Shown here one piece after another: positions 6,035 through 29,500 of a stretch of DNA of 64,000 nt. The stretch spans positions 56,528 to 120,527 of IMG/VR virus record IMGVR_UViG_2728369482_000003, one strand, 5' to 3'. The DNA comes from a virus. Lineage: Duplodnaviria > Caudoviricetes. A model generated the notes under the pieces. That model did not search any database, was not told where the DNA came from, and saw only the letters and a program-made list of their open reading frames with translations. The number at the start of each line of letters is the position of its first letter. Within the stretch, counting starts at the first letter, position 1. Position numbers and translations under genes: made by a program.

Positions 6035-6505
6035 ATGATCGATTCACAAGTTGAAAAACAGGAACTAAACCTGTACCTGAACCGGACCTACTATCCAACC
6101 GGTACCAACGGATCATTAACCGACGGAATGCGGGAAATCAGTAAAACCATCGAACTACCCTGGAAGGATAACCAGCCCCGCATCAGCTGTATACCGGAAG
6201 GAACCTACCCGGTAGTGATCTATAATTCACCCAAACACGGTCCGAGCCTGCTGCTGAAGAAAGTACCCGGCCGCTCGATGATCGAAGTCCATTCGGCCAA
6301 CTGGGCCATGGGAAAAGACGGTACCGGTAAAACCCCGCAGCTGCTGGGCTGCATTGCCCCGGTGACCCAGCTGGATACCGAGACGGGTGGTCGGCCCGGC
6401 GTGGGCTGGAACTCCGGTAAAGCCCTGGAAAAAGTCGAAGCCCTGACCTTCCCTGTTATCAAGGCCGGTGGTCAGGTATTTCTCCACATCCGTAAAGCCG
6501 CTTAA
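6035..6505 (+). CDS. DUF5675-family protein, putative peptidoglycan hydrolase/endolysin
   Basis: L.R...T.G.L...TIELPW..N...SCIP.GTY...HSAN...L.GCI pattern with a His/Cys pair typical of DUF5675. Confidence 0.7.
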   Translation: MIDSQVEKQELNLYLNRTYYPTGTNGSLTDGMREISKTIELPWKDNQPRISCIPEGTYPVVIYNSPKHGPSLLLKKVPGRSMIEVHSANWAMGKDGTGKTPQLLGCIAPVTQLDTETGGRPGVGWNSGKALEKVEALTFPVIKAGGQVFLHIRKAA

Positions 6506-9500: not shown

Positions 9501-11943
9501 CGAGGCCCAGACGGGTAAACCGGGCGAAGATCCCTTGACCCTATCCCAGACAATTGTCCGGCAGTACGAGACAAAATTCCCGGTAACGTCAGAGACGGTT
9601 TCCGATACGGACTGGAATCAGTTCGTCGATACCGGAAAATTACCGGTTGGTTCAACCGTAGTTGACAAACTAATTCAGAAAATTAAACTGGGTCAACCGC
9701 TGGATCAGCGGGAAACCTCCCTGTACGGAGAACCGGCTATTGCCAAACAGGTAGAAGCAGCTCTAAAACAGGCGGCTGAAAAACCCAAGGCTCCATCCCT
9801 GTTTGATCTGGGTACAGCGAGTACCGAAGATGACTCAGAGAAAGTTGAATCCATTCCCAAACCGGTTGACAAAAATACGACATCAGACCTCGTCACATCC
9901 GCTGAAGCTCAACCGGTTAAGCCGATTCGTAGTCTGTTCGATCTGGGAACACCCGGAGAAGTCGAGGATGAAGCTAATCCGGTATTCGATCCGATCAAAC
10001 ACGGATTGAAGCTGGGTATCACCCCAATCGAACGGGAACGGCTGAATCCCGAGCAATTGACAGTACTGGATAAAGCTAAGACCATCAATCCGGCAATCGA
10101 GGAACTCTACACCCGGCTGGGACGTCCGGCTATGAAGCCCGGTAGTCTGGCCAACAAGTTCAACACGACCGGAATGCTGCTCTTCGACGGTAAGCCCATC
10201 TACGCCGACCCGGACAAGCTGGAAACGGATCCGGTTCTGCGGGCTGAATGGGAAAAAGTGGTAAACAGCCGGCAGAATCTGATACGGGCTCAATCGGCAG
10301 GTACACCCCTATCGCAACTGTTGGACTGGTCAGTACTGGACCGGCAGCAGGCGGGACTATCGGACGAAGCTACGACGCTGTCGATGGATCCAGGCCTGCA
10401 GCGAAGTTCGGTTCCCTACTACCTGGTGGGCCGGGACAAGCAGTCCGGGGTCGGCAGTCTGGTGATTCCCTTATCGGAGAGTTTACGGGTTAATTCGTTT
10501 GTCCTGCCGATGCTACTGGAACAGCCTGGCTTCTCGCCGGCCCAGCTAAGTCAGCTACGGGAACTGGGACCGGAAAATCCGCTATTGACCCAGGTTCTAT
10601 CGATTACGGGAGAGCCAGGTTACCGATTCTTACAGAAGGCCCGGCTAGTCAATGCCGTGGAAAGCTTCGGGGAGTACATGGCCGCTGCCGAACGATTCAA
10701 CCGGGATACCGGGCAATTGACGGGTTTGCTGGATAATGGACAGGTTAGTCCGGAGCTGGTTCATCAGCTGGACCGGCTGCAGCTGGAACTGGCCGCCAGT
10801 AAACCCTTTACCGATCAGGGCCTGGTACCGGTAACGGAGATGGGTTTTGGAATCGATGGAAAACACCTGATCGTCCGTAAGAGCCGAACCGAATCGGGAG
10901 TTGTTGAAATTAAACAGGTAGCTTCCACTTTGGATAACGATGTTACTATTGATGAAGAAGCGTTTGCCAGCTGGCAACCAGTGATCCAGCAGAGCCTGCA
11001 GAATTACCAGGCGGCCCGGGTCAATGATCTCTACGACGGGTATTACTACATCAGCAGCCCCTCATCGAGCAGTAACTACGTGTACGGCTTTCGGGTAGTA
11101 TCGCCCGACGGGATGGCTAAGCTGGAACAACTGATTCAGCGGGGTGAATCGTTTAGTCCTCAGGAGCAGTCGTTCTATCTATCAATCGGGCAAAAAGAGT
11201 ACCGGCTGGAAGTCCGGGGGGATAAACTGAATGAAGGTAAACTGAGTCTACAGCTGCAACCGGCCGATCTGGATGGGAAACTAAGTAAGACTGAAAAGCA
11301 GCAGCAGACCTGGTATTCCCCCTCGATCGACGTAGCCGGGGTTCGGTCGGGTCAGAAAAAACTGCTGGACGAGCTAAACCGGGTAGCCGGTGAACTAAAA
11401 CAGAAAGACGGGAAAGCTACGCCCATCAAACCGATAATCAGTCAGGTTCAGCTGGACGAAGCCGATCGGTATAAACGCATGGTTCAGATCAGCTCTCCGG
11501 CCGTATTCCGCCGGGCCGATCTTCGGTGGAACCTGTTGCAGCCGGCCGGGGACGAAATCGTGTTGAATCTGCCGGTAAAGCCGGTTGTTCAGACGGGTAT
11601 GGAACAGCTACCTGCCGTATCAGGGTCTTCTCCGGAGAACTCGTTTATTCATTCAAGTCTACAATCATTATTGGATCAGGGTGTAAGTCTCGATCTATTG
11701 AAAGCAGTATCGGAATGGATAAATGAGAATCCAACGGATATTGTTAATCTTTCGGGAATGACATTTACGGTAGACGATTTATTGGAGCTTGATCCAACAG
11801 ACGAAGATCAAGTAGCTGCTGTATATAACGATATGACCAGTGTACAAACAGGTAGCTGGCACCCAACTCCGACAACCCGGCTGCAACAGAGTCCGGACAA
11901 CCTGGATCAGATCGTTGACCGTTTAATAAAGCAGTGCCACTGA
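6505..11943 (+). CDS. giant virion ejected protein with Gly/Ala-rich membrane-inserting segments, 1812 aa
   Basis: Gly/Ala hydrophobic segments (aa ~205-245 and ~505-520), EGLEESLQ motif and long coiled coils. Its only Cys is the penultimate residue. TAATG overlap with the upstream gene. Confidence 0.65.
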   Translation: MNPQAPTPPNPVFDPNRVPFEGAGEPKPLPLSPLEIASSISAPLIKEAARKPSPADTLLKLGQSEMLTGREAQEASRYTDGGNTYLRGRDNEAVAAAGQGFWSRTWNDTKALVGITGSSILQAPLAIPQLVKAGVSLLQGEGIDKALDYARGEEGSWMRGLSDWQDQLNQDTTNYSSSWARENPWKNLIPGYGGEGGTDFGSLVRSGGFVLSGIATSLAEGALGAALAPVTGGISLAAVGVDLTGKLVRGFKALSTIGKSLDKLDDALRLKREAEGVLHGVDTIQGLGKLWSGIDTPLGNLSTRSALHGFLLANSEASLEGYGAEKELERTLLDQYYQQTGQEATGEARSRIQSVAQQAGNSTYLWNHALLGVSNKFQIDSILKNFSATKQLFSGLEGDLYRAERKTGTNVFEAVRQGSKPLISSAPEGASWFSRGLGAGKAVGTQGLLSLSEGLEESLQKAVTDGTQSYYQYKYNHGGKADLQNGLDAATHGLSEAFGTSSGWTEFIGGMLIGSLFGGGSKALFDWRSAPGQQKRAEALAQQFNLSMPDFQRVIQQQLTGSLAGADLLTKGAETNAVLGASSVGAQAASQGQQRIFQNQKNSAEFSFLYPFVRQGADSVLKEQLDSFKQDIEKRPDEFRQAYGIDGSVPTDKLRGIIDHLGTKLESLQRAHDRYAPLFINPYKKDPSSEDYRDFEAYRAELLHNDYLRQSYGERIAKLQGKTSLLGETDWTSPAGWKARKGQISNRLTELDSLISLAKQSLAPTGDRTNPTDEEVARVDRQLRSQQRAEREELEARLSAIEQIQTGNFTDYDAVLDTIKAELTHPDMGTGLPKTITHTELAQLLQDRYDVGELQASIDKLTELFNGLSSRKGFEDYRVTTDRYRAKQVQKELEKLLSSRTALRDEIVGQFDSVADAELHLGSLDELTARYGSDYNQNPDSVRTELGQLITEKKAEKADEKARRDDEIRILSELVKGDPRVAAVQSRADQTGAELTKLIEAQTGKPGEDPLTLSQTIVRQYETKFPVTSETVSDTDWNQFVDTGKLPVGSTVVDKLIQKIKLGQPLDQRETSLYGEPAIAKQVEAALKQAAEKPKAPSLFDLGTASTEDDSEKVESIPKPVDKNTTSDLVTSAEAQPVKPIRSLFDLGTPGEVEDEANPVFDPIKHGLKLGITPIERERLNPEQLTVLDKAKTINPAIEELYTRLGRPAMKPGSLANKFNTTGMLLFDGKPIYADPDKLETDPVLRAEWEKVVNSRQNLIRAQSAGTPLSQLLDWSVLDRQQAGLSDEATTLSMDPGLQRSSVPYYLVGRDKQSGVGSLVIPLSESLRVNSFVLPMLLEQPGFSPAQLSQLRELGPENPLLTQVLSITGEPGYRFLQKARLVNAVESFGEYMAAAERFNRDTGQLTGLLDNGQVSPELVHQLDRLQLELAASKPFTDQGLVPVTEMGFGIDGKHLIVRKSRTESGVVEIKQVASTLDNDVTIDEEAFASWQPVIQQSLQNYQAARVNDLYDGYYYISSPSSSSNYVYGFRVVSPDGMAKLEQLIQRGESFSPQEQSFYLSIGQKEYRLEVRGDKLNEGKLSLQLQPADLDGKLSKTEKQQQTWYSPSIDVAGVRSGQKKLLDELNRVAGELKQKDGKATPIKPIISQVQLDEADRYKRMVQISSPAVFRRADLRWNLLQPAGDEIVLNLPVKPVVQTGMEQLPAVSGSSPENSFIHSSLQSLLDQGVSLDLLKAVSEWINENPTDIVNLSGMTFTVDDLLELDPTDEDQVAAVYNDMTSVQTGSWHPTPTTRLQQSPDNLDQIVDRLIKQCH

Positions 11944-11973
11944 GTCTGTTGATTTTTTACCGTTCGATAAAAG

Positions 11974-12008
11974 AGCCTACCGATGTAACTATCTGGTAGG
12001 CTTATTTT
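11974..12008 (+). terminator. intrinsic terminator
   Basis: agcctacc...ggtaggct stem followed by tattttt, just after the stop of the 1812 aa gene. Confidence 0.6.
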
Positions 12009-12041
12009 TAAGCAATACATACTAGAATAAATACGACTGTT

Positions 12042-13112
12042 ATGGGCACATATCCTTTGATTGTAATTCCTTCAGTAATCAACAAAATCATTCTAGGTGA
12101 TATACCAATTAACCCTCCTCCACGACTTCCTACTAAACCAACTATACCAACCGAACCGAAGAAACCGGATTTAAAGCCTATAGCTGATTTTCCATTATTG
12201 GTTTTGATGAAGTATGGATCCTTCATTACAGGATTTGCTTCATTCATTATTTTTGTCATCAATTTATTAAATTTAGAAAGAACTGGACGCTTTACTTTAC
12301 TACCTACCCTATTATTTATATTCTTTGGCTGGAGATTATCTCGCTATATAACCAACAAGAAATTAGATGTCATTATAGACAACCAATACTTAGAAAGTAA
12401 TTACGAATCAGACGTTGAGAATTATAAAACCTTTGAATTACCCCAATATCAAAAAAACGTTCAACACTATCGTACGTTATACGATTCATACAAAATTACC
12501 AAAAAGAGATGGGAAGAAGAGTTAACAAAAAGAGAAGATGAAAAATATAAAGCAAGTTTGAAAACTGAATTAATTACAATTCTACTAAAAGGTTCAAAAA
12601 CACTTATTAAAAATAAAAAGAGAATAATTAAAGGAACTTCTGAGGAATTATTTTTATATTCATTAAATACACATTTTCCAGGAAAAATATTAACCGGTTT
12701 TAGTATACCTGTGGCGGGGGAAGATTATTTATATACACCCGACTTTATTCTATTTGAAAAAGAACTTAATCTGTATATCGACATAGAAATAGATGAGCCC
12801 TACGTTGGCCGTACCGGAGAGCCCATCCATTTTATAGAATCTTCTGATCAAGTACGGGATGCCTGTTTTATAGAAAACAATTGGATTGTCGTTCGTTTTA
12901 CCGAAAAACAGGTTTACGGGTCACCAACGGCTTGTTGCCATGAAATAGCTCGTGTAGTTAATCAGATCAAACCTATCTATGATTGGGCTGACCCGAGTAT
13001 TACTGTAACCGTAGAACCACAGTGGACACTACAAGAAGCCATTCAAATGGCTAAGGATAATAGCCGAAATAAATATTTACCTTTTTTCAACTGGTTTTCA
13101 CCAGTTAAATAA
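12042..13112 (+). CDS. membrane-anchored DUF559/Vsr-like PD-(D/E)XK endonuclease
   Basis: Pro-rich N-terminus, two TM helices and a coiled coil, then YTPDF...IDIEIDEPY...PIH...D..RD..F..NNWIVVRFTE. Strongly AT-rich. Confidence 0.7.
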   Translation: MGTYPLIVIPSVINKIILGDIPINPPPRLPTKPTIPTEPKKPDLKPIADFPLLVLMKYGSFITGFASFIIFVINLLNLERTGRFTLLPTLLFIFFGWRLSRYITNKKLDVIIDNQYLESNYESDVENYKTFELPQYQKNVQHYRTLYDSYKITKKRWEEELTKREDEKYKASLKTELITILLKGSKTLIKNKKRIIKGTSEELFLYSLNTHFPGKILTGFSIPVAGEDYLYTPDFILFEKELNLYIDIEIDEPYVGRTGEPIHFIESSDQVRDACFIENNWIVVRFTEKQVYGSPTACCHEIARVVNQIKPIYDWADPSITVTVEPQWTLQEAIQMAKDNSRNKYLPFFNWFSPVK

Positions 13113-13114
13113 CG

Positions 13115-13513
13115 TTATTGTTTATTTCCTGTGACAGTCGTTGTTGTATACGCTTTATCACTATCTGTATTAGCTATACTACCAGTAACGGCTGTGTAGC
13201 TAAAACCATTTTCGGTAAATTCTCCTGTCAATTTTTGATTGGTATAACTGGGATCTCCAGTAAATGTTTTACCATTCATAATAAGTTCTTGTCCACCCAG
13301 TTGTGAACTAGTTAATAAAAGACGATCCTGAGAAGAGCCTTTCTTTATATCAACCGAACTAACCCCTTGTTGGGTGTTATAAATAGTACTATTGATTGAT
13401 ACAACCTGTTGATAACGTATGGAATACGTACCCGTATAATCCGGCGTAGCTTCAGTGGATTTACAGCTACTACCCAGCACAACGGGTAATAGCAGATAAT
13501 ACAGCTTTTTCAT
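13115..13513 (-). CDS. lipoprotein (beta-rich)
   Basis: MKK, hydrophobic stretch and LGSS-C lipobox. Confidence 0.75.
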   Translation of the reverse strand: MKKLYYLLLPVVLGSSCKSTEATPDYTGTYSIRYQQVVSINSTIYNTQQGVSSVDIKKGSSQDRLLLTSSQLGGQELIMNGKTFTGDPSYTNQKLTGEFTENGFSYTAVTGSIANTDSDKAYTTTTVTGNKQ

Positions 13514-13515
13514 AG

Positions 13516-13866
13516 TTAAGTGGTTTGTTTGTAACCTATATATTCATATTGGGATTCGGGAATGTTTTTCTGGTTTTGATCTATAAGACTGATTACACTT
13601 GTAAATCGTAAACCTTCATCGGTAAAGGTTCCAACAATACTCGGATTAGGAATTTCAGGATCGTGTACAAATTCATTACCTGTTAATACAACCTCAAATA
13701 GTTCTTCATTATCAGGAATCATGAGTAATCTGTTTTTAGATGATCCCCGTTTGATAGTTAACTGTGAGACCGATCGTGTAACATAATTGATATTTACCGG
13801 AAATAAGGTCTTTTTTGAACACCTGACGGTATACGTACCCAGGTATTGGTTGATATCTTCGTTCAT
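13516..13866 (-). CDS. signal-less paralogue of the adjacent lipoprotein
   Basis: YLGTYTVR...VSQLTIKRGSSKNRLLM...GTFTDEGLRFTSV aligns with YTGTYSIR...VSSVDIKKGSSQDRLLL...GEFTENGFSYTAV. Confidence 0.65.
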   Translation of the reverse strand: MNEDINQYLGTYTVRCSKKTLFPVNINYVTRSVSQLTIKRGSSKNRLLMIPDNEELFEVVLTGNEFVHDPEIPNPSIVGTFTDEGLRFTSVISLIDQNQKNIPESQYEYIGYKQTT

Positions 13867-13950
13867 TGGGTTGATAAGTAAGTAACCATTGTTCTCCTGA
13901 TCTCAGGATCAATGGTAGTACTACTTACTCACGAAGTCAACTCCTATTGA

Positions 13951-14388
13951 TTAAGCGGCAATCTGATAAGTTACAAATGTATGTTTTTCGGGAGTATACA
14001 AACCTACCTTTTCACACTCAGCCCGGGTAAAAAACTCGATGGTAAAATCCATGGTGTTCTTTTTCCGGGCTGCTTTTTCCAAAGCATACCGTTTGTCGGT
14101 TACACCGGTTACGTCCTGTAACCAGCCTTCTTTTTTGATCTGGTAAGCCCAGTGCTCACAGGCTTTGAACGTCCGGTTCAGCTTGCAACAGGCTTCCTTG
14201 ACCAAGCAAGTGTCTACTTTACTAGTGTCACCATTTGGAAACACCGTGTCTACTAAAAAATACAGTTCTTCATCTGACCAGATAGCGGGGTTAGCCGAAT
14301 GCCCGTTAATCGTATAATTACGGGGAGATTGTAAACCATTGATTCGTTTCATAACTTTAACTATCAAATCACCATGAGCCTGGCTCAT
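13951..14388 (-). CDS. putative Myb/SANT-like HTH DNA-binding protein
   Basis: WSDEELYFL...ACCKLNRTFKACE resembles the W.xEE..L...L.RT..A pattern. Confidence 0.4.
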   Translation of the reverse strand: MSQAHGDLIVKVMKRINGLQSPRNYTINGHSANPAIWSDEELYFLVDTVFPNGDTSKVDTCLVKEACCKLNRTFKACEHWAYQIKKEGWLQDVTGVTDKRYALEKAARKKNTMDFTIEFFTRAECEKVGLYTPEKHTFVTYQIAA

Positions 14389-14417
14389 GGCTTGTTTTGG
14401 ATTAAATGTTTGGAAAT

Positions 14418-14451
14418 AAAAAAGCCCTCCGGACCTTCCGGAGGGCTTTTT
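14418..14451. terminator. bidirectional intrinsic terminator
   Basis: aaaaaa-gccctccgga-cct-tccggagggc-ttttt, a perfect 10-bp stem. Confidence 0.85.
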
Positions 14452-14508
14452 CGGTAAAATGGATTACCGAACGGCTAATACTATACGTACGTTTTACGGA
14501 TTGACTAT

Positions 14509-14934
14509 TTACAGTCGAACGTGTCCTTCTTTGATGGTGAATTTGTAAGCCGGATTTTCCGGGTCGTCTTCGAACTGAAACAGCTCGACCATGTACTGGT
14601 ACTGTTTATCCAGAAAATCAGCAATGTTCAATTGCTGCAGAATACCTGGGATTTTAAAACCATACCCTTTACCTACTCGTTGAAGCTTCAAAATTTGGTC
14701 GTCTTCTTCGTTAGCTTCAACAGGCATTACGATCAGTTCTTTGGCCCGACCTTTTCCCGGTGCTTTACCGACTTTGAAGTAGCCATCCAATGGCGTATCC
14801 AGTTCTTCAATTACTTTAGTGTGCAGTACGATCTCACCCCGTTTGGTTACGTTGCCTTCTAAAACGGGGGACGTTTGGGGACGCTTTAACTGAAAATCTT
14901 TTCGGTGAAAGAATTCGACATCAACCTTTTTCAT
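14509..14934 (-). CDS. hypothetical protein, possibly AbrB-like swapped-hairpin regulator
   Basis: 141 aa. VTKRGEIVLHTKVIEEL resembles the AbrB/SpoVT hairpin-helix. Confidence 0.35.
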   Translation of the reverse strand: MKKVDVEFFHRKDFQLKRPQTSPVLEGNVTKRGEIVLHTKVIEELDTPLDGYFKVGKAPGKGRAKELIVMPVEANEEDDQILKLQRVGKGYGFKIPGILQQLNIADFLDKQYQYMVELFQFEDDPENPAYKFTIKEGHVRL

Positions 14935-14983
14935 GTTAGGGATTTGTTTGGCGTAATTTGGACACGATTAACAATCGATACCA

Positions 14984-14991
14984 CAAAGGTA
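14984..14991 (-). promoter_or_regulatory. Bacteroidota sigma-A -7 box (TAnnTTTG)
   Basis: TACCTTTG on the minus strand ~50 nt upstream of the 14934 start. No clear -33 TTTG. Confidence 0.55.
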
Positions 14992-15073
14992 AGTATCCGT
15001 TCGTATAAATGGTTCGACATTTGTACAACCCAAATAGGATTATACTATAACTCAAATATACAAAAATTACTTA

Positions 15074-15098
15074 TTGGTATACGTCTCAAGTATACCAA
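15074..15098. repeat. 9-7-9 inverted repeat, operator-like
   Basis: ttggtatac-gtctcaa-gtataccaa in the AT-rich intergenic region, flanked by direct aaattact copies. Confidence 0.5.
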
Positions 15099-15148
15099 AT
15101 TACTAGACAAATTCCTATATTGATTTGATTTTACCGGTTGATCAGCTC

Positions 15149-15583
15149 TTAATGAAGGACGTGGACCCGGCGGTAATCCGCCAGGATTGACTTGACTTCC
15201 TCATTTTCCTGTCCGTTAATCCAATGGAGTTGAATGGTGTATCCCTGCTCCCGTTTGAGCGCGTACCTAAGTTCCAGTGTTTCATTGCTATACCGTTGGT
15301 ATAATTTTTCTACTTGTTCGGTATAACCCCATTCCAAATACTTTCGAATGAACTGTTGATCAGTGAAGACCTGAATCTTTTTGTCGGCAGGTTGATGATC
15401 TGATAACCACTGTAAACCGTCTTTGACAGCCAGAAAACCACCAATAATGTTTGTTGAATCAGCTATATCGATCAGGTTTACCTTAGAATCAACCAGAAGG
15501 TTATTCTCCCGAACGGTATACGCCGTATGAATTGGTCCGCCTGGATTCGGGTAGCAATGAGCGGTGGTGAAAATTTGAATCAT
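15149..15583 (-). CDS. RNase HI-like protein with degenerate active site
   Basis: IQIFTTAHCYPNPG / STNIIGGFLAV..GL / IQVFTDQQ / LHWINGQENEEV follow the RNase HI motif order, but only the second Asp is retained. Confidence 0.65.
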   Translation of the reverse strand: MIQIFTTAHCYPNPGGPIHTAYTVRENNLLVDSKVNLIDIADSTNIIGGFLAVKDGLQWLSDHQPADKKIQVFTDQQFIRKYLEWGYTEQVEKLYQRYSNETLELRYALKREQGYTIQLHWINGQENEEVKSILADYRRVHVLH

Positions 15584-15585
15584 CG

Positions 15586-16125
15586 TTAGAGTGAATCGAA
15601 ACTGAATTTAGGTTGAACTTCAACTATGGGTGATTTGGGAGGCTGGGTAGCACCACGCTTCTGGTGAGCCACAATCTGTAAAGCAGCCGGGTTATGTTTT
15701 TTGAAATATTCTATCCGGTTACCGTTAAACAGGTAATGGGGATTGATCCAGTATTCATTCATACACCGCCGAGCCAAGAATCCATTTTTGATTAACTGCT
15801 CAATCGAAGCATAAAAAGTGGGGCGGCTGAATCGTACGGCTTTACAGACGTCAACCGCTCGTAGTTTGACAATATCCTGGTTCTTCTTCAGGGTATACGT
15901 TATGTGTAAGAGTAGATCCCGGGAGGATGGACTCAGTACCCCAAATACCAGGTCTTCGGTTGTCTTATCATAGTAGAGCTTACAGCTTAATCGTTGATCA
16001 CTGTAATACCCTTTCCGTAGTTCTTCATAATCGAGGGTTACATCTTCTTCAAAAACAGTTTTAATGGTTGACGACTGAATGACTCGTATTACCGGCAGTC
16101 GGTACGAGTAGATAAAAGGATTCAT
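15586..16125 (-). CDS. repL: RepL-like replication/maintenance HTH protein
   Basis: HTH (VCKAVRFSRPTFYASIEQL...GFL) followed by the YWINPHYLFNGNR signature. Start placed at MNPF (16125). Confidence 0.65.
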   Translation of the reverse strand: MNPFIYSYRLPVIRVIQSSTIKTVFEEDVTLDYEELRKGYYSDQRLSCKLYYDKTTEDLVFGVLSPSSRDLLLHITYTLKKNQDIVKLRAVDVCKAVRFSRPTFYASIEQLIKNGFLARRCMNEYWINPHYLFNGNRIEYFKKHNPAALQIVAHQKRGATQPPKSPIVEVQPKFSFDSL

Positions 16126-16139
16126 AAAAGTCTGATTGA

Positions 16140-16370
16140 TCCGCAAGTAGTAAAGATTTCTAACACATTTTTGGTTCGATTTGGTTAACATTTTTGATAC
16201 TCTTAAAAGTTAATATTCTTTACCATACCCCTATTTTTCTACCGTAAAACATATAACCCTTCATTGATCCAGTATAACTATAACAGGTTAAGTTAGAAAC
16301 ACCCTATGCTATTTAATTGGTAATCAATAATCTATAACACATTTTTATGTTAACTTTATACTAACACGGG
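16140..16370. other. AT-rich origin-like region with short direct repeats
   Basis: taacacattttt at 16161-16172 and 16335-16346, each followed by gttaac. Several tataac copies. Lies directly upstream of repL. Confidence 0.35.
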
Positions 16371-16487
16371 AACCCACGGAAAAACGGGAAGCTTGGATTC
16401 TTTTCCGGATTAAACCTGAATAAATCCGAATTGAATTACGGACCAAACTCGTCCATTCAGGCTCCTGACCCGGTGAAGCAGTTCGGT

Positions 16488-16495
16488 TACCTTTG
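16488..16495 (+). promoter_or_regulatory. Bacteroidota sigma-A -7 box upstream of the RNAP gene
   Basis: TACCTTTG 6 nt before ATG 16502. The track's TTG start lies inside this box. Confidence 0.5.
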
Positions 16496-16501
16496 CTCAT
16501 T

Positions 16502-22500: not shown

Positions 22501-25500
22501 CCTGATCGGTATCGGGGTGAATACCAACTTGTTTCTAATCAATGCCGTCCGGCTGGGCTTTCAAGTCCATCCCGACTACCTGCCTAAACTGGACGACAAC
22601 CGTTCCCATGACGGGATCTACCGGGCCCAGACGGTGGGGAAAAACGGCGAGGCAGTTCGGAGCTTTGATATCAACTCGACGATCATTACGGCCGATACCG
22701 ACGAAGCCAAGGAAGCCCTGAACGCCTACTACCAGCTCAACAGCGATACCCAGGCTGTGGTACTCCACCTGACGGGGATTGGCTACAGTCTGCTCGACGG
22801 ACTGACACTGGTCAACCAGCCGGTGATTCAACGCTACGTGGCCCTGACCGAACAGGCCCGCCGGGTCAAACGAGGTATTGGGGTTATCAGCAAGGAAGAA
22901 GAAGGACTTCGGTTTGCCAGCAAGGATAAACTGGTCCGGCAGGCGCTGGGCTTATCGGATACCGACAAACTGGACCTATCCGGAAGCTACACCGTCGAAG
23001 CCCTGCGGAACCAGTTGGCTGGTTACCGCAAAACCGGAACGTATCAACGGTCCTCAATTGATGGACAACTGCTGACCGATTTTCAGAACCTGGTCGAATT
23101 GAACGAGTACGCCAGTAACTTCGTCCGGTTCATCAAGCTCAAAAAAGGGTTTGGTCGGGAGCTGCCCGCCTTCGATCAGCTGGTCAAAGCCGGTGAACGA
23201 CTGGGGTTTGGAGCCGTAGAACCCGAAGCCGCTCCGATCGATATCAAAGCCAAGCTGGAAGCCAAACCCAGACTGGCCGCCCAGTATTTGAACCTGATCA
23301 ACCAGATCGTCCCCCGCTCCCAGGCCCTGCAACAGCAGGTGATTCTCCGCCGGCACCCCCTGTTTACCGGACTCCAGCAACAGGTCAGTAATCAGCTAAA
23401 CATGGTCTCGGCGGCCGATCAGGAGATTCTGGCCCGGGCGGTGGAAACCTTTTTGTTAACCAAACTCTACCAGCAGCAGGGCTTCCAGCTGGATCCGGCC
23501 AGTGTATACCAGGACGGCGGGGACGAACGAATCACCCGGCAACTTCAGGCCTTTCAGCGGGATTACGCGTTTGTCCGAAAAGATGAGAACGGACTGATCC
23601 TGGAAAAAAGTATCTTTGCCGATAACCCGATCTTCGAGCTGCTTCAGCCGGTAACGGGTACTGATGGAACCAGTACCCTCCGACTCGGCGGAGCTCTCAA
23701 GCTCAGTCCATCCCAGCAGGAGAATCTGCTGGATGCGTTCCAGGATCTCTACACCCGGCCGAACCAGCCAGTGATCGACGGACAAACGGTTGGACAACTG
23801 ATGGCTACCCGGCTGGTGAATTACCACCTGGTCAAGGAAGGGTTTCAGTTTACGGTCAACAGCATCAGCCGGCTGTTTCCCCCGGCCGTCTTTGCCCAGC
23901 TCAGCCAGCAACTCGATCAAATCCAGGCTAATCCGGACGTATCCGGAAATACGGTAAATCAGTGGTCCGCTGACCTACTGACCAGTCTGGGTCGGGACGT
24001 GAACTACCAGACGTATGTTAAGCCCTTACGCAGACCAACTGGTAAAAACTCATTAGCCAGTCTGGTTAAACAATCCGGATTCTGGCAGTACCAGACGGCC
24101 GACGAGCAAGTGAGTAAACAAGCCCTGACTACCGACCTGGTACTAGATAGCACCCGGATTCCCGCTGATAAATCCCAGGAGCTGTATCCCAGTATGGGTC
24201 TGGGGTATTCACCCAAAACCGGATCGGTTGATTTCCCCCGCTTTATTCGGGTTGAAGAATGGATGAACGGGGGTACGGGTGAGTACGGCGAGGAACTACC
24301 CAGCTACAAACAGGCTAAAACCTACGAGCTGGTGAGTGTTATCGGTACCGATGGAAAGGTGATTCCCCTGTCACAAATCGAAGCCAGTCCGGAAGTATCC
24401 GGAAGTAAAGCCCGCTACGTCGAAGTCATTCCATCGGGAGCCAAAGGAATCTCGGGGGCTACCGGCTTACCGGCCCACTACAGCCCGGCAGCCAAGACCA
24501 AACGGGATGCCTTGAGTAGTCAGGTTAAGCCCGGTTCGGCTACGGCTAACTACTATGGATTAGCGGGGAATCCAATGCTACCTGCTCTAGTAACGGGTGT
24601 AAGTCAGTCACCGATAACTATTGTCGAAAAACCTGTCGTTACCAACAAAGAATTGGTCATTTCTGTTTTACCGGAAACGACCGAAAAGGGTAAGCGGGCA
24701 GAAACCACTACGAAGTTTGGGGTTGAGAAGCCGCTGAGCTACGAGCAGCTGGGAACCGAGCAGAAGCAGTTTGTGGATAAGCTCCAGTCATTTGTGCTGA
24801 CTGATTCGTTTAATCCCCGGGATGCCGAGTCGGTACTGGTACTGGAAGGGTCGGCGGGTACTGGTAAAACAACGTCGGTAAAAGTAGCCCTGCAGCAGCT
24901 ACTGGAATCCGGCCGAGTTTACCCTGAACAGATTATGCTGTCAGCTCCTACGCACACGGCTCTGAAGACCTTGTTCCGGTCCGTTCGGGGAGTAAGGCAT
25001 CGAAACCGAAATCCGATGAATACGGCCCGTTTTTACAAAAACAACGTAAAAACAGTTCAATCCCTGCTGGGAGCCGTTCGTCGGGTCAATCAGAACGGGG
25101 AACTTCAGTTTTCTATCAGCAAGACCACCAAGGAAAAACTGCTGGATATCCGGTTGCTGATTATCGACGAAGCGTCCATGATTTCCAATGTTCGGGAAAA
25201 GGGAGCAACGGTTAGTATGTTGGAAGGGCTTCAGGGTTTACAGGACGAACTACCGAACCTGAAAATTCTGTACATCGGGGATCCGAACCAGATACCTCCG
25301 GTGAATGGAAAAGAAAGTGTTGTTTTTAGTCTGTACCGGAATAACCTTCATCGGCTGACGCAGGTATTCAGGCAGTCGATGCAGAATCCGGTCATTCGAA
25401 CGCTGACCCGGATCCGGGAGAAGATTGATCAACCGACGGATCCGCTGGATTACAAATCAGCCATCCATAACGGGGAAGGGATTGTATATACCGGGTCTTC

Positions 25501-26572
25501 CGCTGCCTTTATGGAACAGGTACGGGATCAGTTTACCTCGGACGGTTACGCAGCCAACAAAGATTTTACCAAGGTTATTTCCTACACCAACCAGGCCGTA
25601 CAGCGGTTTAACCAGCTAGTCCGTCGGTACCGGTTCGGAGACCTGCCGAAATTTCTGGAAATTGGGGATGTCGTGATGGGCTACGCCAATACCGATATTA
25701 TCAACGGACAGGAGTATGAGGTCCGCTCTATCACTGAGAATCATCCGATCCAGCTGGACGAACTACTCAACAGCAGTACGGCTACGGGTCAACGGCAGCT
25801 CCAGTTACTAACCGATGAATTTCCCCGGCAGGTTCAGCAGCTACGGGCTAATCCGCCCATTGGCTACAAGGTAGAACTCGAAGAAGTTAACTCGATCAAG
25901 GCTGAATTCGACGAATCACCCCGGCAGACTAGTTATCTGCTGGACGTCAAGAACGAGTCCGATATCGATTACATCCGGGAGCATCTGAATCTGGTAGGAG
26001 CCGTACGAACAAAGATCAACGCTACCTGGTCGGAGTACAACCGAACCAAAAACCGGAGTTTATTCGGCCTGATTCAGGAGCTGGAAGGCGTTCGACAAAG
26101 TCTGGAAATGATTAACTTTAACCAGCCAATCATTCAGTACCAGAACCAGTTCTACCCCCAGAAGCAGCTGGTGTTGATTCTCCAGACTGCTGGACAAAGC
26201 CCGGACCAGATTGAACAGATTCTTAGCCGGGGTAATATCGTGGACAAGACCTACGATTATGGCTATGCGATTACAGCCCATAAAGCTCAGGGAAAAACCT
26301 ACGTCAACACGCTGATTAACCTGGAAGACATTGACGGTAATAACGACCGGAGACGGCTAGCCAATCCCAAAGAAGTAAACCGGATTCGGTACGTAGCCTT
26401 GTCCCGGGCTACTGGCATCGATTACGTACTGACCCCCAAAGCTGAATCCGTTTCCCAGCCCATTACCGTTAAACCTTCCCTATTTGACATCGGTACCCCG
26501 GGAGAATCCCTGGATGAGCAGACCGATACTGATTTACGGCTCGACCAACCCTGCGCCAAACCCACCGCCTGA
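16502..26572 (+). CDS. virion-associated single-chain two-barrel DNA-dependent RNA polymerase (crAss-like) with N-terminal zincin-like domain and C-terminal SF1B (Dda/RecD-like) helicase
   Basis: RIPSQDKHS (21692) and catalytic GSDFDIDKLY (DFDID 21809-21823), plus ADAQGY and K.S motifs. EEAFH...EEKLA zincin-like region. Helicase motifs GSAGTGKT, SAPTH, IIDEASM, GDPNQIPPV, LTQVFRQ, YAITAHKAQG and YVALSRA. Confidence 0.88.
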   Translation: MPYQPLCLNPQDPTVKQFINQYGMRETYRIYTQHQYWLPDFTAYQNRTQADVLPTQGAMDYLQSMVSLDQFNTDNLANIGVELPQGTEAAFWRDTFYFGDSISRGALSEEAFHAVFQRVIPGTEQQDLLDTGKQLLQADLKVLGHTSLNGYYQTMLQSAPQTYENLSKEAGLNRLYEEKLATEFVRWNTYGKQAAWEADWTKRLAPYLGAKSASRISGLISRLFTRLKAVMGLYDKNRLKADLFFSRLRSGVYQTAKVTEAGNLNTVPTTRLIRLGNGQTVSVRESTQLLRNLGALVLQLGDHDLFSYLSEPERIEKALELMSSQYGRTPGGKQVSLVLKPTYFDKVSKQKEVNPEYQLIKADLEAYLGELRSVSTLLDESEEDEIGGGINEFAGYDKEANEIGGFAGLSTWVKQFIARTGIPRLDSNGLPQVHTVDTGNGVIELPILDVVDPQQVYTGLARSLSNTTGVNDRLEKLLVLTQFDGNPATRAVTDQLLRDMAPVRYQATPALQAIQERFTLTDGIRTPQQLDRALQIADARLTARDRSAITQQAFTRLQETSPRVLREELLAAIRTDTLDSYLSSAGKNVLIRILKGFDLWKRDMLNMRVDPSNGLSVISEANVERASKQLLARWESNWNRRTTETPDQLPTGPDVVNSRVTLETKDFPLVQLEALALPEQTAYIESVFDREVDKQLRFLNRFGIQVPSAYLYYRLQWFAEQRYPALPGINQTRSARLKDLYPIPDSLLLTPDDLGLLDKYVQNPAVSPYQATGSKGLEAGMRTRLQKLAEGAARFDESAVDSSYQNAEGKTIYSYQQKTYSLEFFNWFGQTGLTKLEDLYRTGNRTRLRDDPSGNPVYLQLDSWALQKNRLLKAILTDPAVRAQQGKLTAFTVDGTTQTQLEGTPDNARSRPDAQAGEGVTYGGMSPREFDQFNLNSLVSRSTTVGSLTISPVFLGNRETSKTGEYMNLPLLTGLIENDQLTDKGANLLLDEIQKEYERIQQTYKEINPDENGKPRYSAELEKAQNYHTGKSLKPVVVKDPTRLSVTVHVPSAGKDFRGLQFTDGLRGLLPGNWQTLPQPGDTEAGNLILSALAGYDFPRQKLLAPIKQQIRANLDEHLDRFAQEGLWKADLSGPTTLLNLRLSKARVENKLVSDLLNNIAMGQLAYGDAALLYKNDGVDVFKRLKGLNAAIINFKIPFSSPAQGIDEPATYLKALTIGEPTAVSDVSGGSIDLADAQGYQSVQARRKHLYGAGRLDSLQVEVLDAIQEGKPVRGKLLARLRESGIMYNSEKTVGADGQQYKKLSETILSKELTADPYPITKEQFDQWASLDSYNRTRLNPGSPEVSSYIDDKSGQRVYRQWVPKPGRRSLNELRLKMDGFERVGDNWQFRGYEHRIDLVTPLSASKTLNVNVHETRTDAGQPDWGQVDDRSIHQLDFSFYGLQTENPSGKTKIVDPTQMLEIIANELGDDARVWFEQEFIGKNQIETLWQSYLQQRDSTNYQLAEKVFQDESGNLTLHRFRQQAFEAVIRSGKDKQTVDLFDPQHNLNLNLPLTRDQFISQFFSHFSKGVLSHKRAGDSLAHVSSFGHQVIKKLRRVKLDDGSTNITWDVIRDGSREYQLALGQGLSGSLAPFRYKHEFDGKRRIEPTGYTDSKGNTNSSWFSQATTLLGDQDSVYVLDSLRHLKPRLEETAPGSNVYRQTGYFSEALMPVHDDQIRELTPDLRYSFGVRIPSQDKHSAMNVEWVDTLPVFMGSSVILPKEVVELSGSDFDIDKLYLTRFDGYWKKDRNNRNQFVAYGSEQTDEARWESYVHYLLDHYPAIKRELRQKLQDPTYQDLAVVVRALQADQSEQLLDDEQLSDWTAASLQLYFAGDLAGLKAGLDSQYQQALSEVLSQFGLPASQNTYTSLPRAEQEALHVGIIQNRMLSLQQGLLANDTTINDSNPTGGQYNQPAALDKLNELKGETQDGTRLFGESVAPISTHWQLTHSRVHQKNGVGKALIGIGVNTNLFLINAVRLGFQVHPDYLPKLDDNRSHDGIYRAQTVGKNGEAVRSFDINSTIITADTDEAKEALNAYYQLNSDTQAVVLHLTGIGYSLLDGLTLVNQPVIQRYVALTEQARRVKRGIGVISKEEEGLRFASKDKLVRQALGLSDTDKLDLSGSYTVEALRNQLAGYRKTGTYQRSSIDGQLLTDFQNLVELNEYASNFVRFIKLKKGFGRELPAFDQLVKAGERLGFGAVEPEAAPIDIKAKLEAKPRLAAQYLNLINQIVPRSQALQQQVILRRHPLFTGLQQQVSNQLNMVSAADQEILARAVETFLLTKLYQQQGFQLDPASVYQDGGDERITRQLQAFQRDYAFVRKDENGLILEKSIFADNPIFELLQPVTGTDGTSTLRLGGALKLSPSQQENLLDAFQDLYTRPNQPVIDGQTVGQLMATRLVNYHLVKEGFQFTVNSISRLFPPAVFAQLSQQLDQIQANPDVSGNTVNQWSADLLTSLGRDVNYQTYVKPLRRPTGKNSLASLVKQSGFWQYQTADEQVSKQALTTDLVLDSTRIPADKSQELYPSMGLGYSPKTGSVDFPRFIRVEEWMNGGTGEYGEELPSYKQAKTYELVSVIGTDGKVIPLSQIEASPEVSGSKARYVEVIPSGAKGISGATGLPAHYSPAAKTKRDALSSQVKPGSATANYYGLAGNPMLPALVTGVSQSPITIVEKPVVTNKELVISVLPETTEKGKRAETTTKFGVEKPLSYEQLGTEQKQFVDKLQSFVLTDSFNPRDAESVLVLEGSAGTGKTTSVKVALQQLLESGRVYPEQIMLSAPTHTALKTLFRSVRGVRHRNRNPMNTARFYKNNVKTVQSLLGAVRRVNQNGELQFSISKTTKEKLLDIRLLIIDEASMISNVREKGATVSMLEGLQGLQDELPNLKILYIGDPNQIPPVNGKESVVFSLYRNNLHRLTQVFRQSMQNPVIRTLTRIREKIDQPTDPLDYKSAIHNGEGIVYTGSSAAFMEQVRDQFTSDGYAANKDFTKVISYTNQAVQRFNQLVRRYRFGDLPKFLEIGDVVMGYANTDIINGQEYEVRSITENHPIQLDELLNSSTATGQRQLQLLTDEFPRQVQQLRANPPIGYKVELEEVNSIKAEFDESPRQTSYLLDVKNESDIDYIREHLNLVGAVRTKINATWSEYNRTKNRSLFGLIQELEGVRQSLEMINFNQPIIQYQNQFYPQKQLVLILQTAGQSPDQIEQILSRGNIVDKTYDYGYAITAHKAQGKTYVNTLINLEDIDGNNDRRRLANPKEVNRIRYVALSRATGIDYVLTPKAESVSQPITVKPSLFDIGTPGESLDEQTDTDLRLDQPCAKPTA

Positions 26573-29500
26573 TGGCCTGTACCCTTCCCTACATCCAGAA
26601 ACTCTCCGTTCCGTCTTCCGAGAAAACTCGGCTGGAAGACCTACACTTTCAGATCGGTCAGCAGCTGCGGGCCCATCAGTCGGCCGACGGCTCTACGTTT
26701 ATCCTGAAAGGTGGCTATCTCCGGCTCAACTCCCCGGGTTCTGCCGCCCGGACTGAGCAGGAAGCTTTGCTGGACTCGATCAACAGCCAGTACCCCGAAC
26801 CTGTGGTGCGAATCGAGACCATTCAGGAAGCCTACGATCCGGGAGACGGTGAACTGACCTACCGACCCATTTCGGTTGTGGGCGTTGACGTTCGGCCCCT
26901 GCTGAACCCCAGCTACCGGGACCAGATTGGAGAACTGACCAGCCCCGAAGAATCGACCCTGACGGGGATCGGTGGGAATCCAGCGGAGACTGTAGTTCAG
27001 GCTGATCTGGCCCGGGGTCTCAAGGATTTTGTACTGGATCCCATCCAGGATCCCGACGGGTCGGGCGATCTCCGGTTTGTGACCGAAGCCCACCACGAGC
27101 TGTTTCAAAAGACGGCCGAGCAGGTGACCAAAAAGCTCCGGAATTACCTGGATCTGCTGGAAGGAGGATCGGTCGAACGGCCTGGCCAGCAGGTGACTAT
27201 CCAGCAACTTCGGGAGCAGCTACAAGCCTTGGAGAATCCGGATAGTCTGGCCCAGATCGAAGCCGTCTCCGATTTTATCGTCCAGGCTTCGGGTTGGCTG
27301 GACGGGCTTTACAACACGTTTTTTCTCGACGAAGACTCGGTCCGCTCCACCCAGCGGGAGCTGCAGACGGGTATCAACCGAAAGACCGGACAACTACTCA
27401 CGCCAGCCGAACGGGATACCAGAATCAACTGGGTTGCCCGGCAACTAGCCAAGCAGAAACACTACCTGTACCTGTTCGACGAGCTGGGCCGCTTCAAACA
27501 GCAGCTTCAGGAGCTCGGCTACGTCTCTGCTACCCAGCCCGTTTACGACCGGGGTGAACGTTTACAATCTGAAACCCGGGATATTCTGGGCCAACTCGGC
27601 GTGAGTCCGGGTAATACCGAATCGGTACTGGACGTCTTACGTTCCGAACAGTTTACCGAAGGAGCTCTACGGGCCGAGCTGTTCCGGGTACTGTCCGTTA
27701 CCCATTCTGACCAGCCGGGGCTTACTATCCACCGGACCGTAGAAGACTACCTGGAGCAGGTGTTGAAAAGCTATCCGGGCAAGACCGTGGAATCGGTTCT
27801 GGACGAAGCCCTGTCTAAAGCCGTTCGACTCAAGCAAAGCCTGGTCGAGCACCACTACGAACTGGTGACCAGCTGGCTCTGGCCACATATCCAGGCCAAG
27901 CAGCAACGCTACACCGGCCCGGACAAGCTCGACCGGGATCAGCTGAAGAGTTTGCTAAAGACGGCAAAAGAGGACGAAGGTATCTTTCAGTATGGGCTGG
28001 ATGCTCCCATTCAGTCATCCGATCCCGTGACGGCTATTGTCGCCAGTCTGACCTCGGATGCCCTGTACCGCTCGGCCGAGGAAAGCCGGCTGAATTTGAG
28101 TAGGCTTCTTTCGGTTCGGGAACCACTGGGGCTGGAAAAAACCATGTCGCCGGCCCAGATCGAAGCCTACCACCGGGCGATGACCCATGATACCATCCTG
28201 CCCCTGGAAGGCCCTGACTCTGGGGAAGCCGGTGAAGACTGGGATGGACCGGTACTGACCGTTTCCGTCTTCGGACAAACCAAACGAATCAAAGGGTATA
28301 CCAAACGGGCCTTTCTGACCGAGTACAACACGGCCCTGCAACAGGCCCACCAGAAAGAATTCTTCGGTCAGCTACCGGGTAAACTCGATGAGCTGATGAG
28401 TCTGGTTACGGTTCAGGACGGTTACCTGGATGTATCGGACCTGAAGGCCCTGCTTCAGACCAGCTCCCAAGACGAATACCTGGGTCCGCTGCTAAGTAAG
28501 CTCTTCAGCTACGACCGATCGATGGGTAGCTGGCAACTCCGGACCAATCCGACGGGACCAACGGATCAGAACTACGTCCGGGGTAAACTCCGTTCGGGTC
28601 TGATCCAAACGTTTTTCAGTCTGCACCAGCAGCCCCTGGATCAGATGAGTAAAGCCAGCCTGTTTACCCGGTGGAACCTGCTGGATCAAACGGGCAAGCC
28701 TAACCGGGATGAACAAACCAGTATCAACTCGGACCTGCAACAGAACAGTCAGGAGTACCGGCTGACGGATCCCGAACTACAGGGTAAGCTAACGGGCAAA
28801 AAGAATGAATCCTGGCTGAATAACTTTGTCGGCTACCGGGTATCGGATACCGAACACTACCTGTACGTACGGAAGCTGGTAATCAACAAAACGACCGGTA
28901 AACCTGAATCCCGCTGGAGCTGGGTGAATATCTATCAGCCCGGTTCACTTACGAACGTTACCCGGCTCTACTACGCCAAAGGGGAACTGATCCGGCCGGC
29001 CGATCGGTACCGCACCGACCGGGGCAGCTTTGGTATCCAGGTCCAGCAGCAATGGGCTGACCTGCAAACCGGTGATTCAGTCCGGAAGACTTACTTCGAC
29101 GGACTCTGGGATGGTTACGAGCGAGCCAATCGGCAGCTGGGTACTCCTGCTTTAGCTCACGGGGTACTACCCCAGGTCGAACGGCTTCAGTCCTTAACCG
29201 AAGGACCCAAGGGTCACTGGGAACGGCTCTGGGACTGGATCAAACAGCACACCCTACTCAGCTGGGTACGCGACAGCTACCACTGGCTGACGGGGGAAGC
29301 GACGGAAGATCAGCAGGTAGGCCGAAAACCAATTTACCTGGATAATTCACCGGTTCACCAGATCCGGGCTCGCTATACCAGCTTTATTCCGGATGGACAG
29401 CTGGAAGGCGATCTGTTTCGATCGGTCCTTATGTACCAGTCGATGGCCAGTAGTTACCGGGAGCTGACTCGACTCGATCCCCAGGTTCAGGCCCTAAGAA

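Follow-up and report, generated by a model that had tools for sequence, protein, structure and literature searches.

Cysteines at facing protein ends point to an end-to-end chain of ejected giant proteins in a crAss-like phage

The 64,000-nucleotide stretch analysed here (the window; IMG/VR record IMGVR_UViG_2728369482_000003) is part of a crAss-like phage and lies within a 228,862-bp contig, which belongs to a genome of 6.57 Mb. It encodes three giant proteins in succession, hereafter modules A, B and C: the gp47-like protein p1812, a two-barrel virion RNA polymerase (RNAP) that also carries an SF1B helicase, and the gp49-like protein p1512. These proteins are almost devoid of cysteine, and the few cysteines that they contain stand at precisely those chain ends that face one another in gene order. 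From homology we infer that A, B and C are packed in the virion and ejected, and the comparisons presented here indicate that these cargo proteins are, in all likelihood, joined one to the next, with disulfide bonds as the probable links. In its specific form, in which two terminal disulfides join A, B and C within the particle into one linear thread, the proposal is regarded as rather likely. The block of three proteins and its fused forms have been described before, as has a single terminal disulfide in cyanopodophage A4; no description of the cysteine rule for the Crassvirales was found in the searchable literature.

Together with p875, a further cargo-type protein, modules A to C contain four cysteines in 7,555 residues (0.053%), as compared to 89 in 8,258 residues (1.08%) for 29 other open reading frames (ORFs) in the window, and the Poisson probability of encountering four or fewer cysteines where 81.4 are expected is 8e-30. 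Tryptophan, methionine and histidine, which are also rare residues, are just mildly reduced in the cargo proteins, and the scarcity of cysteine is therefore not a general composition effect. No cysteine is present in the 875 residues of p875, while p1812 possesses a single one, Cys1811 of 1812, at its penultimate position (KQCH). The RNAP-helicase possesses Cys7, as counted from its ATG start (TGT, 16520-16522), and Cys3351 of 3356 (TGC, 26552-26554), and no others, and the single cysteine of p1512 is Cys3 (MAC; TGT, 26578-26580). The original prediction for this DNA had reported four cysteines in the four cargo proteins at these very places, and a re-examination of the ORFs and codons agreed with it in every instance. 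Likewise, its statement that the outer ends and the polymerase and helicase cores lack cysteine was borne out, as all four residues are located at inner ends.

If four cysteines were distributed at random, each of the four inner ends would have one of them within 10 residues with a probability of about 7e-11. This value, obtained for this window alone, argues against an explanation by chance or composition, according to which these are cysteine-poor proteins whose few cysteines happen to be near ends, as might be suggested by the ejected proteins of phages N4 and T7, which are cysteine-free and do not exhibit facing terminal cysteines. Furthermore, the pattern recurs at about 20% identity: in an alignment of 40 C-type sequences, C3 represents the sole invariant column. 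Chance is refuted by such conservation data, and its probability is considered negligible.

Conservation of the terminal cysteines was apparent for each of the three modules. A search for homologues of module B, which covered 5.8 billion proteins, returned 33 sequences, and a C-terminal cysteine, positioned 0-5 residues from the end, was found in 33 of 33. Four close full-length homologues (P0002-P0005) contain exactly two cysteines, both of which are terminal, and a further one (P0006) appears to be N-terminally truncated. Four homologues of A (P0185-P0188) each possess a single, penultimate cysteine, and in four related contigs (37-48% identity) the A-type protein holds one penultimate cysteine and the C-type protein one cysteine at residue 3-4. 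The pattern is also kept in L002, L003, L004, L007 and L009 at 35-50% identity, in the IMG/VR relative, and in cr128_1, IAS virus, cr106_1 and the distant lineage L019. The residues that surround the terminal cysteine vary: the A-type proteins of this phage and of L002 end in QCH and RCH, respectively, with a histidine after the cysteine, and other ends read QCE, RCNS, ACLAI, TIC, DCK or SCM. The gp45/gp46-type neighbours, for example the 877-residue homologue of p875 in L002, are nearly always cysteine-free. Loss of the terminal cysteines in homologues had been named beforehand as evidence that would speak against a chain; they are kept across the order, from close relatives to L019.

The nearest counterparts of this arrangement in cultured crassviruses are gp47-gp50-gp49 of crAss001 (PMC10172136) and g067-g066-g065 of phi14:2, which are homologous to modules A, B and C, are arranged in the same order and exhibit the same terminal-cysteine pattern, as verified in their sequences. 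In crAss001 this involves Cys2339 of 2341 in gp47, Cys5, Cys1334 and Cys2404 in gp50, and Cys5 in gp49; in phi14:2 the single cysteine of g067 is its last residue, g066 contains only Cys3 and Cys2179, and Cys3 is the single cysteine of g065. The polymerase of both phages is of the two-barrel type with a DFDxD motif, as is the one described here, and their cargo proteins have been shown by proteomics to be packed in the virion (PMC10172136; bioRxiv 10.1101/2020.03.07.982082), although the cysteines of these proteins are not mentioned by either Bayfield et al. (PMC10172136) or Drobysheva et al. (10.1101/2020.03.07.982082). Unlike in crAss001 and phi14:2, module B of the present phage possesses a C-terminal SF1B helicase, an AT-rich island is located between A and B, and the break between A and B lies about 100 residues ahead of the so-called HEAFH-motif domain, the motif of which reads EEAFH.

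Gene fusions represent a natural experiment on the function of these cysteines. A profile of module C was searched against 1.84 billion representatives, yielding 2,114 hits, of which the best 150 were analysed; among these best 150 were 24 giants of at least 3,000 residues, and no cysteine whatever is present in 17 of the 24 fused giants (3,280-5,391 residues). A cysteine within residues 1-8 was found in 104 of 113 stand-alone C-types as opposed to 1 of 24 fused ones, and, among the 33 B-types, an N-terminal cysteine in 22 of 23 without an A module as opposed to 0 of 8 with one (Fisher's test, 8e-18 and 1e-6, respectively, values which overstate independence because the representatives are related). 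In 90 of those 104 stand-alone C-types the N-terminal cysteine is the only one, and non-terminal cysteines of stand-alone C-types amount to 14 in 190,442 residues. The A+B giants of four Suoliviridae and of Flavobacterium phage Fpv3 (4,287-4,946 residues) have no N-terminal cysteine and have kept the C-terminal one, and the protein that follows each of them carries a cysteine at residue 3-5; the A+B fusion was verified for cr118_1. Conversely, a B+C fusion in a Carjivirus (the p-crAssphage genus) starts with MSC and has no C-terminal cysteine, while the A protein that precedes it ends in SCM. Fusions were encountered in every combination, and each of them removes exactly the cysteine pair of the fused junction. 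By BLASTP, the fused giants exhibit the order A, HEAFH-motif domain, B and C, or extend from A to C without a recognisable polymerase, and this module order is the one predicted by cysteine pairing. The order 1812-C:N-RNAP-C:N-1512, which the original prediction had derived from the positions of the cysteines, is hence supported by fusion order and by the junction-wise loss of cysteines, as well as by the shifted breaks described below.

Fused forms have been mentioned by Drobysheva et al. (bioRxiv 10.1101/2020.03.07.982082), citing Yutin et al. 2018, as supposedly cleaved polyproteins. In these forms a single chain contains the same modules, arranged in the same order; whereas the literature reads them as precursors destined for cleavage, here they serve as a control, showing that terminal cysteines are confined to genetic breaks of the chain. 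One could suppose that the cysteines mark proteolytic or autocatalytic processing, acting as nucleophile or cleavage site, a view which is in line with the proposed polyproteins and with the zincin-like motifs present in these proteins. However, the fused forms lack the junction cysteines, and mostly any cysteine, so that the processing-site reading is contradicted by the cysteine-free junctions of natural fusions. Moreover, the split proteins are already encoded by separate genes (in the present phage 4.5 kb separate A from B, and in crAss001 the two are encoded on opposite strands), and a cysteine 1-7 residues from the end leaves no room for an intein-like module. Processing is accordingly held to be very improbable. 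A further candidate cleavage signal, the peptide SLFD(L/I)GT(PGE), is present twice in p1812 (residues 1098 and 1143; 9796-9816 and 9931-9951) and once in B (residue 3326; 26477-26506), and judging from all homologues checked, from which it is absent, this peptide is private to the present phage; its role as a site at which the C-terminal cysteine would be removed was rejected for that reason.

Alternatively, each terminal cysteine might act alone, whether as a tether to the portal, to the inner face of the capsid or to gp45/gp46-type cargo, or as a mark for packaging or ejection. Any such end-specific role would also vanish upon fusion, and many disulfides exist between structural proteins of crAss001. 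In addition, the A+B giant of L018 (GCA_040384025 contig; 4,979 residues) ends in a cysteine, yet the next protein, a C-type of 1,009 residues, contains none, as could be expected of cysteines that function independently. Nevertheless, A+B+C single chains with zero cysteines demonstrate that no cysteine tether to other parts is needed, and the gp45/gp46-type neighbours, as potential partners, almost always lack cysteine. The number of terminal cysteines is always twice that of the breaks, with the N-terminal end of A and the C-terminal end of C never bearing one, and the order of the modules in fusions is that implied by pairing. Independent action is consequently deemed quite unlikely.

The location of the break between A and B provides a further indication that the cysteines follow the ends. 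In crAss001 gp47, the HEAFH motif is located 184 residues before the C-terminal cysteine, whereas in the present lineage the corresponding motif (EEAFH) is found 102 residues past the N-terminal cysteine of B, and in L019 the HEAFH-motif domain lies 631 residues past it. An hhalign comparison of the A2 and A3 regions returned an E-value of 7e-5 (probability 62%, 115 columns), and fused giants, e.g., P0176, bridge both HEAFH-domain regions. These alignments indicate that the A|B break is shifted, being situated before the HEAFH-motif domain here and in L019 and after it in crAss001. As the cysteines move with the shifted break, they belong to the chain ends as such, wherever these fall, and are not inherited positions. 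All five members of this lineage have the form EE[AVG]FH, in which glutamate takes the place of the first zinc-binding histidine of the zincin-like HEAFH motif, and the domain may for this reason be inactive or altered. A second zincin-like motif (HEFMHP or EEVMHP) is present in some C-types, namely P0021, L014 (25349-30352) and L026 (13743-21989). In P0021, the B|C break has seemingly shifted into module C, with the C-terminal cysteine still present.

According to the model favoured here, that of an end-to-end chain, A, B and C would be pieces of what other phages produce as a single cysteine-free giant polypeptide. The separately translated pieces would dock end to end, and in the virion A-Cys1811 would bond with B-Cys7 and B-Cys3351 with C-Cys3, giving rise to a linear thread some 6,680 residues in length (roughly 0.74 MDa). 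As each cysteine is only a few residues removed from a chain end, such a product would be essentially linear and threadable, and it could, partly unfolded, travel through portal and tail as a single train of fixed order. The purge of the remaining cysteines would prevent stray cross-links from knotting the cargo. In the present phage, A and B could not be joined by translation because the AT-rich island separates their genes. The original prediction had also suggested that the links could be released in the reducing cytoplasm; judging from the cysteine-free single-chain fusions, such release is unlikely to be required, and reduction of the links in the host is probably not essential.

That disulfides may be formed in such particles is illustrated by crAss001, whose virions hold structural disulfides (Bayfield et al. 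2023, PMC10172136), and by cyanopodophage A4, for which cryo-electron microscopy of the pre-ejectosome revealed a disulfide between gp27 Cys1715 and gp26 Cys5 inside the capsid (PNAS 2025, PMC12002296). In the A-4L genome, gp27 (1,717 residues) and gp26 (1,114 residues) contain these residues as their only cysteines. A4 and the phage described here therefore share consecutive giants, otherwise free of cysteine, with facing cysteines near the C-terminal end of one and the N-terminal end of the next, but A4 is a T7-like phage of 42 kb with two such proteins instead of three and no virion polymerase. The A4 paper (PMC12002296) reports the one bond and no general rule.

A relationship between the A4 proteins and the modules was not detected. 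BLASTP of A4 gp26 and gp27 against modules C and A, respectively, gave no match at an E-value of 0.01, and hhalign of the C-type profile against A4 gp26 returned a probability of 0.2%. An AlphaFold2 model of residues 1-700 of p1512 (mean predicted local distance difference test score 82) yielded no Foldseek match at an E-value of 0.001 or better, and VIA-align with the same model produced generic helical matches only (Z at most 8.4). A sequence search of the Protein Data Bank with modules A and C retrieved no solved structure.

The chemistry of the junction could also differ from a disulfide, in that the facing cysteines might share a metal ion (Zn, Fe or Cu) or form another thiol-based link, by which the chain would still be joined end to end. 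The rule observed for breaks and fusions demands joined ends, whatever the chemistry; a metal link would require no oxidation in an anoxic habitat, and a histidine follows the cysteine of A in this phage and in L002. On the other hand, two thiols provide few ligands for stable metal binding, the ends hold no additional conserved histidine, cysteine, aspartate or glutamate, and A4, as the only solved case of this signature, is a disulfide. A link of this kind is considered unlikely.

Among unrelated podophages, the purge is found without the facing cysteines. N4 gp50, gp51 and gp52 (L016) contain 0 cysteines in 4,294 residues and T7 gp15 and gp16 (L028) 0 in 2,065, T7 gp14 having one cysteine at residue 2, which indicates that the purge is common to ejected proteins of unrelated podophages; no paper was found in which it is stated as a rule. 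As presumably in the present phage, the ejectosomes of N4 and T7 comprise large internal proteins that are cysteine-purged and pass through a short tail, but no facing terminal cysteines are present, and in this comparison of sequences the facing cysteines are a feature added to the purge. The pieces of the N4 and T7 ejectosomes are thought to assemble non-covalently, and the N4 polymerase belongs to an unrelated single-subunit T7-like family. Assignment of the present locus to the virion polymerase system of the Schitoviridae (N4-like) was rejected, since the polymerase is a two-barrel enzyme of the DFDxD type and a homologue of crass gp50.

Several points weigh against a disulfide-linked chain. 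The bacterial cytoplasm is reducing and the habitat of gut phages is anoxic, and the site and time of oxidation therefore present a difficulty. The L018 pair, in which the C-terminal cysteine of the A+B giant has no counterpart, departs from the pattern, and a cysteine within residues 1-8 is missing from 9 of the 113 stand-alone C-type representatives; two C-types without cysteine, P0060 and P0159, have an open frame or Ns upstream of them and resemble internal starts of broken fusions. The relatedness of the representatives, as mentioned, lowers the force of the statistical comparisons. As A4 gp26 bears no detectable relation to module C in sequence or fold, the A4 precedent is an analogy. 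Finally, the crAss001 maps (PMC10172136) do not resolve the cargo.

The coordinates of the relevant features are listed in Table 1. The B stop codon and the C start codon overlap by one base (TGATG), and a TTG at 16493 represents an alternative start for B. A small correction to the original prediction concerns the DUF5675 protein, whose gene lies between those of p875 and p1812 and which does not belong to the giant proteins. Seven small ORFs in the AT-rich island, including the one at 15586-16191, returned no hit at the Pfam cut-off. At the A/B gap, relatives hold unrelated reverse-strand genes (HNH, HipA, ANT), suggesting that this gap is an insertion hot spot.

Table 1. Features of the cargo region, with coordinates given as positions in the window
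Feature	Coordinates	Strand	Remarks
p875, cysteine-free cargo-type protein, gp45-like by position	3404-6031	+	Outside the cysteine-linked trio
DUF5675 protein, 156 residues, Cys52 and Cys106	6035-6505	+	Pfam PF18925, E 1.6e-19; outside the chain
Module A (p1812), gp47-like giant, 1812 residues	6505-11943	+	Sole cysteine codon 11935-11937
AT-rich island, small mostly reverse-strand ORFs	11944-16490		GC 0.385 versus about 0.55 around it
Module B, two-barrel virion RNA polymerase and SF1B helicase, 3356 residues from ATG	16502-26572	+
EEAFH motif of the HEAFH-motif domain, B residues 109-113	16826-16840	+
SF1B (AAA_19/AAA_30) helicase inside B	24827-25471		Pfam hits at residues 2779-2993, TTG numbering
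Module C (p1512), gp49-like giant, 1512 residues	26572-31110	+	Sole cysteine at residue 3

The identity of the three modules is supported by independent searches. Module B contains the catalytic motif GSDFDID at residue 1768 (two-barrel RNAP, DFDxD type) and matches 54 crass records by tblastn, including crAss001 gp50 at an E-value of 1e-8. For module A, BLASTP aligned residues 412-514 with residues 397-512 of crAss001 gp47 at an E-value of 0.003, and fused giants match both p1812 and gp47 over their first 600-880 residues (E 1e-21 to 1e-23); by these alignments p1812 is homologous to gp47, both directly, if with a weak E-value, and transitively via the fused giants. Residues 840-1512 of p1512 match crAss001 gp49 (E 3e-17) and phi14:2 g065 (E 4e-9) by tblastn. 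A scan of IMG/VR with the C-type alignment returned one locus only, and a word-indexed IMG/VR search with p1812 four relatives only, from which it appears that the lineage is rare.

The C-terminal region of B was found to be variable among relatives. Pfam hits on B of the present phage are confined to the AAA_19/AAA_30 helicase, while precomputed Pfam annotations place Kinase-PolyVal or ART-PolyVal domains in the same region of B homologues. The helicase region is swapped for Kinase-PolyVal together with a 2OG-Fe(II) oxygenase, for ART-PolyVal, or for nothing, and the C-terminal cysteine is kept by all. Polyvalent proteins of phages and conjugative elements, as reportedly described by Iyer, Burroughs and Aravind in 2017, are said to be giant multi-domain proteins that are delivered and carry effector domains of the PolyVal type.

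The best cultured match to module C is a protein of Leptolyngbya phage Lbo-JY46 (L026, PP438436; 125 kb), at 27% identity and an E-value of 1e-57. In this phage, the A-type protein ends in its only cysteine and the next protein, of 2,748 residues, has its only cysteine at residue 4. Lbo-JY46 showed no polymerase motif, and its 845-residue protein matches p875 (E 6e-17). Lbo-JY46 could serve as a handy test system. A cyanobacterial host for the phage in the window, as might be suggested by this relative, was rejected: the genome that holds the phage contig encodes 46 sorting domains of the type IX secretion system and no photosystem reaction-centre gene, and is consequently that of a member of the Bacteroidota. 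In cr113_1 and cr6_1 (L013 and L015), the late genes, including the cargo block, contain 10-73 in-frame stops per gene under translation table 11, while the replication genes contain none, a distribution reminiscent of the stop-codon recoding that some crassviruses are known to use.

The pattern bears on the open question of how about 5 MDa of crassvirus cargo, including a polymerase that is needed at once in the cell, is packed and delivered, the order of extrusion being described as not understood by Bayfield et al. (PMC10172136). It may reflect a general design rule, the prospects of which are judged to be evenly balanced: ejection giants could be split at almost any linker provided that the cuts are re-closed by near-end disulfides and that other cysteines are purged, in which case crassviruses, which include the most abundant viruses of the human gut, would deliver their RNA polymerase into the cell as the central link in a covalent thread of about 0.7 MDa, thereby fixing stoichiometry and order of entry. 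The terminal-cysteine pattern offers a simple sequence signature for the annotation of chains of ejected proteins. If true, a covalent head-to-tail thread would explain the equal copy numbers, the fixed order of entry and the extreme purge of cysteine, and would furthermore explain the free evolutionary interchange of fused and split gene forms.

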